Of a DNA stretch of 64,000 bases, positions 34,531 through 37,383 are shown one piece after another. The stretch spans positions 151,848 to 215,847 of the forward strand of contig DMZH01000001.1 in the NCBI GenBank assembly GCA_003484955.1, read 5' to 3'. Source of the stretch: Candidatus Woesebacteria bacterium. Lineage in GTDB: Bacteria; Patescibacteriota; Microgenomatia; UBA8517. The notes beneath the pieces are model-generated. The model was given only the letters and a program-made list of their open reading frames with translations, did no database searches and was not told where the DNA came from. Made by a program: the position numbers and the translations under genes. Position 1 is the stretch's first letter. Each line of letters starts with the position of its first letter.

Positions 34531-37383
34531 CTAATTAAAAACATATCTCATTAAAAATTGATAATGAATTGGCCATTTTTGTTGGACGTTTCCACACCTA
34601 GGTTGGATAACATAGAGAGCTATTGCCTCCGGTAAAGATTCTCCATCATTCCAATTTTTGGTAGCACCGTAGAAACAGTAAGGAGACTCACTTGTTATTC
34701 CCGGATACTCTAAATACAACTGATAGAGTTTTGCGGTTTTATTTCCCCACGATAATGAATGTCCCAGTTCGTGAGAAAGGGTATAAAGGGCATCTGCCTG
34801 GTTTTTAACACCAAGTTTATAAAAATCTACATAACTTCCATGATTCCATCCCCAAAAGCTTTCAAACGAGATGGGGTTATACCTAAGAGGTAATGATGGA
34901 TAAGACATACAGACTTTTGAAATATAGCTGCCGTATTTTGAAACCATCACACCTCTTGCATTAACAATGTTGGCATAATATTCTGATGGCCAAGCTTTGG
35001 AATCGATATTTAAACATGCAGCCGGGGGAGTGCCTATTGATATAGAAGCCGCGCCGGACACTTCTTGTTGGGCAGCTTCTTCCGAATCTGCTATGACAGT
35101 AAAAGTGTCTAAAATAACGGAATCTTTATAATCATTTCCGGAATAATTTTCAGTATAAGTAAAAACATAAGGGATGCTGGGAGATATTGAATCAGGAATG
35201 TTGGTGGGTACTTCAGATGGGCATGTTTTTGCCGGACCCGTCGAAAATATTTGGCAGTCATTTTTGAAGGCAATATTTGTTAAGAGACTTTTCTTTGCAG
35301 TGACAGTAATGGTATAGCTAATTTGCAATGGTAATTCCGTATTTTTAAATGGTCCCTGAGGACTTGCTGCTTTGTCAACTTGAATGTAGGGGTTCGAACT
35401 TAAAGTTGTTATTTGTGTAGGGGGTACAACATAAGCGCCGGAATTGATGATAAAAAGAATAAGAGCAACTACCACAGGGAAAACCAAAAGGGTTACCAAA
35501 ACAGGTGTTCCGATCGAGACAAGAACCGCCCCTCCAAGGGTTGTAAAAAACCTGCCGATACTTGATCCGACAGTACCCAGGTTGATCGTTCCACCTGCGG
35601 CCGCCGATGCTAGACCGTAGGATCCGACCCCAGCCACGATTCCTACAACAGGCCCTGCAATTGCAAAAGATCCAATTCCCAGAACGGTTCCCATTATGTA
35701 GGGAGCATTTTTTTTGATTTTGTCCCAGGGAATTTTACTTGCAATCCAGCCAACTGCCGCACCGATTGCGGCTGTTACTATTGCGAGCGGACCGCCGGCC
35801 AGTCCTATTGCCGCACCTGTTCCGGCACCGGTAGTTGCACCGCCAGCTGCTCCTACTGCAGTTCCAGTTGCCCCACCCGCTGCAGCTCCGACACCTGTTC
35901 CGATGGCTTCACCGGCAATCACACCTCCAACCCCGGCAGTCACAACTCCAGTTTCCAAAGCGGCGGCTCCAGCAATGGCGCTGACCCCCTCGGTGGCTAC
36001 AATGGCCGTACTTGCAACCTCAGTCGCAGCCGGTGTTATAAACGTAAAACCAAAATTAATCCCTAATGAGCTTCCTAGCCCTTCAAAAAAAGTTGAGGCG
36101 CCTGGTATTTGCTGAATAATAGAAATAAAAATACCGCCTCCAAAAGGGGTGTACTTGGTTAGTCCAACAACAGAAAGAGCTTGTTGTCCAATTTCACTGT
36201 TGTATATTCCCGTAATTAAACTGTCGGCGGGTAATTTCACAATTTGAGAGTCGATAAAATTGCGGGCCTGTCCAAGCAGAAAACTTTGAGCCTGATCTTT
36301 ACCAAATGAGGTTACATTATCCAGAAAGTTTGATTGAGATTGAAGAAGATTTGAATAGCCGTCGCTCAGGCGATGAAGATTGATTTCGTGTGTATATCCC
36401 TCTACCGGTTGGGTAGTGAGTGTAACTTTAATTTCATCCGGATCGGGTCCAAAAACTGCAGCAGCCAGACCGCCATTTACAGACGCAAGAATGTTTCTGC
36501 TTAGTTGAGTGGAGTTATTAAAGAAAGTTAATTCTCGTGTAGCTGTTTTTAAAGAGTTCTGTACGTTTGTGTCCGAACTAATACCCTTGACGATATTAGT
36601 TTCTTTAGAGACAGACCTCAGAATGGCCGTTTGAAAAGTTGTTTCTATCTGCTGTGAGGGATTGTTAATTGCAAATACTGTGTCGTTTGCTGTTTTGTCA
36701 GCCAAAACCGCAATTTCTTCCTCAGACATATTTTTAGCAAATTCGCTCGAGTGAATTTTTACCTTTACAATATTGGAAATTTCTTTCCTGAAAGATTGGG
36801 GATATGTTTTAGCTTTCTCGATAAACTGTTTGGTGTTTTCATCCGGTGTTTGGGCTTGAGGAGTCTCAACTTTTACATAAATTTTTTTATCTTCCAAAAA
36901 ACTTTGTATTTCTTTTTGTTTTTGTATTTTTTCTTCAAAGGACTTTTTTGTTCTTTCGATTTCTTGTTGTCTTTTATAAATTTCCTGTTTTTTTCTGAAA
37001 GCCTCCTCAACATTTTTTTGAGCACTTTTTTGAGTTTCTTTTAGTCCAATCTCTCTTTTTAGTCTTTCAGCCTCCTGTTGTTCCCTTGCTACTTTGTCGG
37101 GCATGTTTGATTCGGTTGGTTTTTCCCCGCCTGTAGATTCTGAAGCAAGTTCTTCTACGGCAAGTTCTGCCTTTTTGATGTTTGCAAAATCTTTTTCTGA
37201 TTTGATGGATATCCCTGTAAGACGATAAACAAAATCTATAAAGTCACGCCTATCTTTCCAGTTAAATTCTCCCGAGATGTAAGGTTTGTCTGCTGAATAA
37301 ATTGCATCTTCCGGGAAAAAATGGGCAAACGCATACCTTAAGTAATTTATGTTTTCCGGAGTTAAACTGATTTTATTTGCCAT
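34531..37383 (-). CDS. large hypothetical membrane protein: N-terminal coiled-coil, central Gly/Ala glycine-zipper TM region, C-terminal HExxH metallopeptidase-like motif
   Basis: 950 aa. Residues ~100-180 are K/E/Q-rich coiled coil. Residues ~440-640 are G/A/V/I-rich with repeated GxxxG (AGVGGVIAGEAIGTGVGAAAGGATGTAVGAAGG...). The C-terminal segment LYTLSHELGHSLSWGN contains HExxH. Directly downstream of virB4-like in the same orientation. Confidence 0.45.
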   Translation of the reverse strand: MANKISLTPENINYLRYAFAHFFPEDAIYSADKPYISGEFNWKDRRDFIDFVYRLTGISIKSEKDFANIKKAELAVEELASESTGGEKPTESNMPDKVAREQQEAERLKREIGLKETQKSAQKNVEEAFRKKQEIYKRQQEIERTKKSFEEKIQKQKEIQSFLEDKKIYVKVETPQAQTPDENTKQFIEKAKTYPQSFRKEISNIVKVKIHSSEFAKNMSEEEIAVLADKTANDTVFAINNPSQQIETTFQTAILRSVSKETNIVKGISSDTNVQNSLKTATRELTFFNNSTQLSRNILASVNGGLAAAVFGPDPDEIKVTLTTQPVEGYTHEINLHRLSDGYSNLLQSQSNFLDNVTSFGKDQAQSFLLGQARNFIDSQIVKLPADSLITGIYNSEIGQQALSVVGLTKYTPFGGGIFISIIQQIPGASTFFEGLGSSLGINFGFTFITPAATEVASTAIVATEGVSAIAGAAALETGVVTAGVGGVIAGEAIGTGVGAAAGGATGTAVGAAGGATTGAGTGAAIGLAGGPLAIVTAAIGAAVGWIASKIPWDKIKKNAPYIMGTVLGIGSFAIAGPVVGIVAGVGSYGLASAAAGGTINLGTVGSSIGRFFTTLGGAVLVSIGTPVLVTLLVFPVVVALILFIINSGAYVVPPTQITTLSSNPYIQVDKAASPQGPFKNTELPLQISYTITVTAKKSLLTNIAFKNDCQIFSTGPAKTCPSEVPTNIPDSISPSIPYVFTYTENYSGNDYKDSVILDTFTVIADSEEAAQQEVSGAASISIGTPPAACLNIDSKAWPSEYYANIVNARGVMVSKYGSYISKVCMSYPSLPLRYNPISFESFWGWNHGSYVDFYKLGVKNQADALYTLSHELGHSLSWGNKTAKLYQLYLEYPGITSESPYCFYGATKNWNDGESLPEAIALYVIQPRCGNVQQKWPIHYQFLMRYVFN

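Follow-up and report, generated by a model that had tools for sequence, protein, structure and literature searches.

This analysis concerns protein X, the 950-amino-acid (aa) product of an ATG-to-stop open reading frame (ORF) at 34531..37383 on the minus strand (stop codon 34531-34533) of a 64,000-nucleotide (nt) stretch of a Candidatus Woesebacteria genome (assembly GCA_003484955.1, contig DMZH01000001.1, positions 151,848 to 215,847; hereafter the window). According to the ORF list and its translation, X is a membrane protein linked to a type IV secretion system (T4SS). On balance, we favour X as the envelope-lytic subunit of a monoderm-type, MPF-FATA-like Patescibacteria T4SS with an exchangeable tip and a cognate partner, i.e., as the counterpart of VirB1, PrgK, TraG of pIP501 and CwlT. 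In Woesebacteria-like genomes, a large and fast-evolving family that sequence models miss occupies the slot right after virB4. The presumably outer tip of this family is a wall hydrolase or, as in X, a new M34-like family of zinc peptidases (about 390 representative clusters) with predicted activity, and close relatives exchange the tip together with the downstream partner. Below, p187 denotes the product of the gene after X, Lnnn are related loci and Pnnnn are cluster representatives. An earlier sequence-only reading of the window had reported the same 950-aa ORF, without a strand.

The C-terminal HExxH domain

34534..35013, minus strand: X aa 791-950, predicted M34-like gluzincin metallopeptidase domain (AlphaFold, Foldseek, profile search)
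34759..34773, minus strand: HELGH with H871, E872 and H875, the two predicted zinc-binding His and the general-base Glu (translation, conservation, Zmp1 alignment)
34627..34671, minus strand: Y905 ... E915-S-L-P-E919, probable oxyanion-stabilising Tyr, third zinc ligand (E915) and second-shell Glu (E919) (conservation and hidden Markov model (HMM) alignment)

The sequence-only reading had described a C-terminal domain of about 300 aa with LSHELGHSL, whose HExxH could be catalytic or fortuitous. The motif is present as HELGH at aa 871-875, but the 300 aa are really a spacer (aa 657-790) followed by a HExxH domain of 160 aa (aa 791-950).

H871, E872 and H875: HExxH is kept in 153 of 154 family proteins despite an overall identity of 25-30%, and homologues spanning all of X retain HE(L/S)GH. 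The sole exception is P0105, which reads NESSH. Over 149 aligned domains, H871 is conserved to 99% and E872 and H875 to 100%. In the profile alignment, HELGH pairs with HETAH of Zmp1 (H142/E143/H146). H871 and H875 are likely zinc ligands, and E872 would activate the catalytic water.

Y905: This residue (97% conserved in the same alignment) lies two alignment columns from Tyr178, the oxyanion-stabilising Tyr of Zmp1. It is likely the catalytic Tyr and would stabilise the transition state.

E915 and E919: E915 is conserved to 99% and E919 to 97%, with Asp in the remaining cases. The HMM alignment sets E915 against the second Glu of the Zmp1 'PEE' tandem, which is Glu185, and E919 against the Glu four residues on. 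Within the Glu184/185 tandem, it is Glu185 that coordinates zinc (PMC12828418). E-x-F-A-E is the consensus of the family (ESLPE in X), and Zmp1 and anthrax lethal factor (LF) have E-F-F-A-E. E915 is likely the third zinc ligand and E919 a second-shell residue. The third ligand had been sought 18-25 aa downstream of the motif in the sequence-only reading; this position is not supported, as E915 lies 40 aa after H875.

E899: This alternative third ligand (24 aa after H875) was rejected because it is only 83% conserved, lies in a loop and is not aligned with the Zmp1 ligand.

Cysteines: Cys 790, 825, 903 and 930 are 95-100% conserved in the domain, and the spacer holds two further conserved Cys.

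An AlphaFold2 model of aa 791-950, made with a nine-sequence alignment, reached a predicted local distance difference test score (pLDDT) of 92.8 and a predicted template modelling score (pTM) of 0.91. The modelled fold consists of helices, a three-stranded sheet, the HExxH helix (domain residues 77-94) and a later helix (131-140) that starts at E915, an order of elements that fits a zincin. Foldseek placed PPEP-2, PPEP-3 and PPEP-1/Zmp1 first among PDB structures, followed by LF and M1 aminopeptidases. The probabilities were 0.94-1.00 for the PPEP chains and 0.82-0.98 for LF, with template modelling (TM) scores of 0.48-0.66, E-values from 2.5e-3 and identities of 10-14% to the PPEPs (10-17% when LF is included). 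Searching PDB sequences with a profile of 31 diverse domains also gave Zmp1/PPEP-1 first (E=0.001) and LF next (0.003-0.02); an earlier profile of nine sequences had found nothing meaningful in PDB.

PPEP-1/Zmp1, PPEP-2, PPEP-3 and the catalytic domain of LF (MEROPS M34, clan MA(E)) share with X the compact zincin fold, HExxH on the active-site helix, and a downstream Tyr followed by the E-x-F-A-E helix, with the first Glu of this helix as third zinc ligand (predicted in X). The PPEPs act outside the cell at the wall surface (PMC8610288), which resembles the location proposed for the tip of X. On the other hand, X differs from M34 in its four family-specific conserved cysteines, a longer spacing from Tyr to ligand Glu (10 residues vs 7) and the lack of a Pfam ATLF match. 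Its domain is nearly always the C-terminal tip of a T4SS-linked membrane protein, not free or secreted. When nine single sequences were compared with Pfam, ATLF was not matched even at E<=10, and the matches obtained (Reprolysin_5, DUF6055, M64, Mx1) were weak; no Pfam or NCBIfam model covers the domain. Because single sequences give only weak non-ATLF Pfam matches and NCBIfam has no model, we treat the domain as a new gluzincin family that lacks annotation, a distant relative of M34 but not a demonstrated member of it.

The family is large. Of 1.84 billion cluster representatives scored with a profile of nine domains, 391 matched at E<=1e-3 and 270 at E<=1e-10; in almost all of them, the HExxH domain is the C-terminal part of a protein of 600-1050 aa. 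In a scan of 183 collected sequences, the same membrane segment and beta-rich spacer precede the domain in nearly every case. A homologue search with the C-terminal domain as a single sequence gave only 2 matches.

The 153/154 conservation, the zincin fold and the M34-like downstream Tyr/Glu support a catalytic role for the motif, which bears every sign of it, the activity itself being predicted. Of the two options in the sequence-only reading, the catalytic one gained ground, and a fortuitous HExxH was rejected in view of the conservation across the family. That reading had also named an unconserved HExxH and a non-peptidase fold as the points on which it could fail; both were checked, and the motif is kept in a zincin fold.

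Exchange of the tip and the downstream gene

33953..34516, minus strand: p187, a bitopic protein with an N-terminal K-rich tail, one transmembrane (TM) helix and an ectodomain of ~140 aa, encoded after a 14-nt gap behind X

A homologue search with X returned the 100%-identical cluster P0001 and 35 homologues. Near aa 635, P0001 reads GGVVLV where the window translation has GGAVLV, a single-residue variant despite the reported 100% identity. The C-terminus is intact in 35 of the 36 sequences, P0036 ending just after the last TM helix. Seven tips are of the HExxH type, about 19 are M23-type (12 called by Pfam, the rest with an HxH motif), 7 are CHAP and 1-2 are Amidase_2. The slot is identical for each tip type: in nine syntenic loci compared gene by gene, the order is PrgI, TraC-like, VirB4, X, one small gene, dnaN and dnaA.

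The flanking genes are far better conserved than X. At the protein level, identity to the window is 86-89% for VirB4, 82-86% for TrsD and 69-79% for dnaN; for X aa 1-440, it is only 31-44%. DNA similarity to related loci runs from virB4 into the first ~100-125 codons of X and then stops. The DNA of L018 (CHAP) and L020 (HExxH) is ~90% identical as far as nt ~300 of X, and the similarity resumes at the end of dnaN; between these flanks the two cannot be aligned, except for the TM segment. Comparison of the window with L003, L004, L019 and L020 gives the same borders, at window positions ~37010-37090 and 33950-33958. As DNA similarity breaks at these points, X beyond its first ~100 codons and the next gene form a hypervariable island between conserved anchors. 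The borders are sharp and recombination-like.

The tip types are interspersed on a neighbour-joining tree of VirB4. L018 (CHAP) and L020 (HExxH) are sisters, the window (HExxH) groups with L019 (Amidase_2), and L001 (HExxH) groups with the M23 loci L016 and L017. Because of this interspersion, phylogeny does not explain the tip pattern.

In every case, the product of the gene after X is bitopic and has a similar N-terminal anchor, but its ectodomain differs by tip type:

HExxH tip: p187 family
One M23 subtype: a family of ~345 aa
The other M23 subtype: a Big_5 protein of ~155 aa
CHAP tip: a Big_5 protein of ~210 aa
Amidase_2 tip: a protein of 385 aa

These five tip classes, each with its own downstream family, come from a small sample of 19 distinct loci including the window (12 with HExxH and 7 with M23, CHAP or Amidase_2). 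By Blast, the downstream proteins match each other at 1e-18 to 1e-131 within types and at 1e-8 or weaker (mostly >=1e-4) between types. In each of the 12 distinct HExxH loci, an HMM of p187 matches the gene that follows X, even where the HExxH domain is only 25-30% identical. In the 7 other loci, five partners have no match and the two partners of one M23 subtype (M23b) are marginal (E about 7e-4), probably through the shared N-terminal anchor. The association of HExxH tip and p187 is 12/12 vs 0/7 (Fisher p=2e-5, uncorrected for phylogeny).

p187 has no relative in Pfam, NCBIfam or PDB. It may be a cognate partner that would bind the tip at the membrane's outer face and regulate it, inhibit it or help it dock. 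The alternative that p187 is a generic conserved VirB8-like subunit is weakened, as the ectodomain is swapped for unrelated ones whenever the tip changes.

Two observations on the related loci may be added. On the short contig L010 (138-2851), the pair of HExxH tip and p187-like gene is located upstream of PrgI and TrsD, not downstream of virB4; the pair is thus kept though the gene order differs. L005, L007, L008 and L012 are metagenome-assembled genomes labelled 'uncultured Gammaproteobacteria bacterium', yet they carry a Woesebacteria-type locus (the HExxH domain of L005 is 96% identical to that of the window), and these third-party annotation (TPA) labels look wrong.

Role of the tip

In the reading that we favour, the conserved 82-aa N-terminal domain, presumably cytoplasmic, would tie X to the VirB4/TrsD/PrgI machinery, while the variable helical region and the Gly-rich membrane segment would anchor it in the membrane. 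The last TM helix would place the beta-rich spacer and the tip outside the cell, beside the secretion apparatus. There, the tip would act as a gluzincin-type zinc endopeptidase, a distant relative of M34, and cut peptide links of the wall locally, most likely peptidoglycan cross-bridges or stems. The cut would open a passage for the T4SS and a VirB2-like pilus through the own wall, the host wall or both. The tip would be a replaceable module, its place being taken by M23, CHAP or Amidase_2 in orthologues, and each type would travel with its own downstream bitopic protein, here p187.

It is the positional equivalence with the M23, CHAP and amidase tips that suggests peptidoglycan peptides as the substrate of the HExxH tip. 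Peptidoglycan or host-surface processing, which the sequence-only reading had brought up, is the best-supported role in light of these tips at the same slot. X itself has no recognised peptidoglycan-hydrolase domain in Pfam or NCBIfam (SLT/lysozyme, CHAP/NlpC-P60, M23 or amidase). Since such domains are lacking in X and present in its orthologues, we file X as a functional analogue and not as a member of the VirB1 sequence family.

The closest functional parallels are PrgK (pCF10), TraG (pIP501), TcpG and CwlT (ICEBs1), which are termed 'VirB1-like'. Like X, they are encoded beside virB4 in an MPF-FATA-type cluster and combine a membrane anchor with one or more extracytoplasmic lytic domains, an arrangement predicted for X. 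PrgK and TraG carry M23 or CHAP domains, as do orthologues of X, and, as with X, the gene of a small bitopic protein comes next (prgL after prgK and traH after traG). X differs from this class in having a gluzincin instead of SLT, lysozyme, CHAP or M23, and in its cytoplasmic-looking N-terminal extension of 440 aa and Gly-rich membrane region. It has one exchangeable tip instead of several fixed domains, and this tip co-varies with the next gene. In addition, X is encoded on the chromosome near ori, and its system has no relaxase (PMC12102498).

Several points weigh against X as a peptidoglycan-cutting T4SS subunit. The nearest relatives of the tip, the PPEPs and LF, cleave proteins and not peptidoglycan, and a fold search of BFVD gave zincin peptidases only, with no endolysins. 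The statistics that link the tip to M34 are marginal (E=0.001 in a search the size of PDB, Foldseek E>=2.5e-3, TM score <=0.66). The membrane region, on which the putative topology of X depends, is modelled with pLDDT <60. The VirB4 tree carries no support values, and the p-value for co-variation is uncorrected for phylogeny. Finally, two of the alternative partners are Big_5 immunoglobulin-like proteins, unlike classical inhibitors.

As the nearest relatives of the tip are protein-cutting enzymes, a serious rival is a protein substrate, either anchored in the wall or part of a surface layer. Here, the tip would be a surface-protein protease like PPEP-1, cutting wall-anchored or S-layer proteins or adhesins, own or the host's, near the T4SS. 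Attachment could thereby be released or remodelled, or a surface layer of protein opened. L-peptide bonds are the normal target of clan MA(E) enzymes, and all the closest relatives by fold and profile (PPEP-1/2/3 and anthrax LF) are protein endopeptidases. The viral fold matches in BFVD are likewise protein-processing zincins and not lysins. Moreover, the PPEPs act on cell-wall-anchored adhesins (PMC8610288). Nevertheless, every alternative tip at the orthologous slot belongs to a dedicated class of peptidoglycan hydrolases (M23, CHAP, Amidase_2), and identity to the PPEPs is only 10-14%. We regard a surface protease as rather unlikely.

The cassette-like behaviour suggests that the tip meets a variable external target, e.g., the host wall. 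More specifically, X and the next gene could be a polymorphic cassette of enzyme tip and cognate partner, which Woesebacteria would exchange by recombination. Its conserved anchors would be virB4 with the first ~100 codons of X at one end and dnaN at the other. The envelope of the host cell would be the target of the tip, whose type (M34-like zincin, M23, CHAP or amidase) would track host wall chemistry, and the membrane-anchored partner would protect or regulate the own wall. We put this forward tentatively, with a minor share of our confidence. X has the layout of such cassettes: a variable C-terminal enzymatic domain, a conserved N-terminal part and a co-varying downstream gene. VgrG2b-PA0261 of P. 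aeruginosa, of the polymorphic toxin or evolved-VgrG type, likewise joins a conserved N-terminal delivery or anchoring part to a variable C-terminal enzymatic tip; such tips include thermolysin-like gluzincins that act in the cell envelope, and the small ORF directly downstream goes with the tip (PMC6899460). In contrast to the VgrG2b type, X is predicted to remain anchored in the membrane, and its link is to a T4SS, not to a type VI or type VII system, and unlike in polymorphic toxins, no orphan tip or immunity arrays were seen. If the cassette exists, the locus would be a host-range determinant of an essential T4SS of candidate phyla radiation (CPR) bacteria, and the HExxH domain would be the first M34-like peptidase to cut peptidoglycan or wall-linked peptides.

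A third view takes X for the missing VirB6-like translocon subunit of Microgenomatia ('extended VirB6' or ConG-type), with glycine-zipper helices lining the channel and the tip as an accessory fusion. The position of X directly after virB4, its enriched GxxxG motifs and its layout (a large hydrophilic N-terminus, several hydrophobic Gly-rich helices and a hydrophilic C-terminal domain) would fit. Extended VirB6 proteins carry large hydrophilic domains (PMC12857230), and VirB6 homologues are reported to be scarce in Microgenomatia (PMC12102498). Against this, only aa ~627-650 are strongly hydrophobic, the other helices being borderline and of low confidence, and the linker rich in Gly varies among homologues and is modelled as disorder. 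Roughly TM helix, spacer and tip are all that is left of X in L008 and L013, and a separate 532-aa polytopic protein (43856-45454) is the better VirB6 candidate. Membership in the VirB6 family was rejected, as no VirB6/TrbL/PrgH model of Pfam or NCBIfam matches X, and a VirB6-like role is improbable overall. That HExxH is a chance motif or the remnant of a dead enzyme, the domain merely binding or being structural, is very hard to credit: no Pfam family is assigned, but the motif stands in 153/154 proteins at 25-30% identity with co-conserved downstream Tyr/Glu/Glu, the fold is a zincin, and P0105 (NESSH), the sole exception, shows what decay would look like.

The T4SS locus itself and a lytic enzyme beside virB4 as a kind of component are already known. 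In the one species tested, epibiotic growth depends on the Patescibacteria T4SS, and VirB1-type hydrolases are reported to be rare beside virB4 (PMC12102498). New are the gluzincin family as a lytic tip, the strict tip-partner co-variation and the sharply bounded hypervariable island beside the replication origin, none of which was found in the literature searched. The work defines a new peptidase family for annotation, and the catalytic residues, the domain borders and the partner protein are testable handles on how ultrasmall bacteria breach their own or the host wall.

Layout of X and of the surrounding locus

37138..37383, minus strand: X aa 1-82, conserved N-terminal alpha/beta domain (pLDDT about 70-87)
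36898..37095, minus strand: X aa 97-162, K/E/Q-rich long helix, coiled-coil-like (composition; one helix, pLDDT 78-89)
36304..36840, minus strand: X aa 182-360, fast-evolving helical domain (pLDDT 70-88; 31% identity across homologues)
35824..36063, minus strand: X aa 441-520, G/A/T/V low-complexity linker (G/A/V/I/T fraction 0.84-0.88; pLDDT 21-36, no secondary structure)
35416..35823, minus strand: X aa 521-656, membrane region (hydropathy segments, conserved residues, predicted helices and GxxxG enrichment; topology putative)
35014..35415, minus strand: X aa 657-790, beta-rich spacer with conserved Cys710/Cys721, ending in G-x-P-P-x-x-C (alignments, architecture counts)

aa 1-82: Mean identity to X is highest here (63% over 34 homologues), compared with 31-39% for aa 83-440. 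This part may be a cytoplasmic docking module for the T4SS.

aa 97-162: The coiled-coil segment of the sequence-only reading holds up, with a K/E/Q fraction of 0.46-0.54 over aa 101-200 and a long helix in the model.

aa 182-360: Foldseek found no PDB match for this domain (best E-value 0.87). It is absent or much shortened in L008 and L013, in which most of the N-terminal region is gone.

aa 441-520: This part has a mean identity of 34%, is gapped in many homologues (mean coverage 0.67) and is modelled as disorder. Because it is gapped and predicted to be disordered, only part of the 'glycine zipper' is a conserved membrane element. The G/A/V/I/T stretch with GxxxG repeats had been noticed correctly, and the glycine-rich string quoted for it lies at aa 483-531. 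The G/A/V/I/T fraction is 0.84-0.88 over aa 451-550 and 0.58-0.64 up to aa 650 (64-88% within aa 451-600), and aa 441-656 hold 17 GxxxG motifs, compared with 8.3 +/- 2.3 expected (0 of 2000 shuffles reach 17). X has no match to a Gly-zipper or VirB6 family of Pfam. The channel-forming role that the sequence-only reading also brought up is thus not supported, the Gly-rich part being modelled with low confidence or as disorder.

aa 521-656: Gly-rich helices are predicted at aa 534-550, 560-576 and 578-595, with a K-rich loop at aa 550-558. The last TM helix (aa ~627-650) is very hydrophobic, the sole strongly hydrophobic segment, and ends in an invariant INSGAY motif. P636, G649, A650 and Y651 are invariant, and G527, G577, G585, G598 and P627 nearly so. 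Mean identity over aa 601-656 is 58%. The C-terminus of X would be outside the cell, as every alternative tip is a wall hydrolase, cysteines are conserved, and positive residues (K550-K558 and R611) precede the last TM helix.

aa 657-790: The spacer (40% mean identity) may be beta-sandwich-like, judging from its sequence. It is common to HExxH- and M23-tipped orthologues and absent from those with CHAP and Amidase_2, in which the tip directly follows the TM helix. The spacer of one homologue weakly matches DUF7507; X itself has no Pfam match there. A word-indexed search with a profile of TM helix plus spacer returned 4 short fragments only, as it was swamped by hydrophobic, Gly-rich words.

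A model of aa 1-660 has an overall pLDDT of 60.8, fair for aa 1-360 (about 70-88) and poor for the membrane part. Foldseek found no PDB relative for it, only generic helical repeats. The spacer, the N-terminal 360 aa of X and p187 have no Pfam match even at E<=10. Full-length X belongs to no Pfam or NCBIfam family and has no sequence relative in PDB; VirB8, VirB9 and VirB10 families of Pfam and NCBIfam are not matched either, in agreement with the lineage-specific T4SS component proposed from the sequence alone.

Upstream of X, the following genes were identified:

39917..40984, minus strand: PrgI-like (VirB3-type) membrane protein (Pfam PF12666, 1.6e-6, above cut-off)
39237..39920, minus strand: TrsD/TraC-like protein (NCBIfam NF041427, 2.3e-8; orthologues recorded as PF26593 TraC-like)
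37420..39240, minus strand: VirB4-like ATPase of the CD1110 family, directly upstream of X (NCBIfam NF045971, 1.4e-109; Pfam P-loop_TraG, 1.9e-27)

These three genes, X and p187 are tightly packed on one strand, with overlaps or gaps of <=36 nt; dnaN and then dnaA come after p187 on the opposite strand. The gap of 36 nt between virB4 and X has no terminator-like site, and the order PrgI, TrsD, VirB4, X is kept in 14 distinct related loci in which the virB4 side is covered. L011, whose record ends upstream of X, and L010, with its other gene order, were left out of this count. The proposal that X is co-operonic with VirB4 is borne out by the shared strand, the short gap and the kept order. Scans for promoters and terminators were uninformative, the counts being at or below shuffle expectation.

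Quinonero-Coronel et al. 2025 (PMC12102498) described an ori-proximal T4SS of the monoderm type in Patescibacteria, which the locus matches; the named relatives are Candidatus Woesebacteria or Microgenomates. VirB1 homologues are reported there to be rarely linked to virB4 (PMC12102498). The counterpart T4SS is essential in Southlakia epibionticum (PMC10633639; PMC12857230), as are peptidase and lysozyme homologues just downstream of virB4 in this species (PMC12102498).

Further genes of the locus were noted. Seven small two-TM proteins at 48288-51009 (minus strand) form an array of VirB2-like pilins typical of Patescibacteria T4SS loci; compared with Pfam T4SS_pilin (PF18895), five are above cut-off, one is a weak match and one has no match and the same layout. 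The 532-aa protein at 43856-45454 (minus strand) has a signal peptide, about 6-7 strongly hydrophobic segments and no meaningful Pfam match (DUF1707 at E=0.013, below cut-off). It is plausibly a highly diverged VirB6 analogue, in a class in which VirB6 is reported to be scarce. Also inside the locus are an 808-aa secreted protein (45488-47914, minus strand) and a 906-aa soluble protein (41127-43847, plus strand). Neither matches Pfam or NCBIfam, and the 808-aa protein has no PDB sequence match either. An opposite-strand gene of 750-930 aa is kept at the corresponding place in L001, L003 and L004. Directly adjoining the pilin array, a 559-aa protein (51072-52751, plus strand) with an N-terminal anchor, a coiled coil and a SpoIID domain (2.8e-20; lytic-transglycosylase-type wall enzyme) is a second candidate wall-remodelling enzyme of the locus.

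Two related loci carry insertions. In L016, a 23S_rRNA_IVP gene (PF05635; 444-863, plus strand) is inserted between the PrgI-like and TraC-like genes. In L007, VirB4 is a single 1209-aa ORF (81-3707, plus strand) with an in-frame intein of ~560 aa containing a LAGLIDADG homing endonuclease (PF14890, 9e-19; PF14528, 3e-18).

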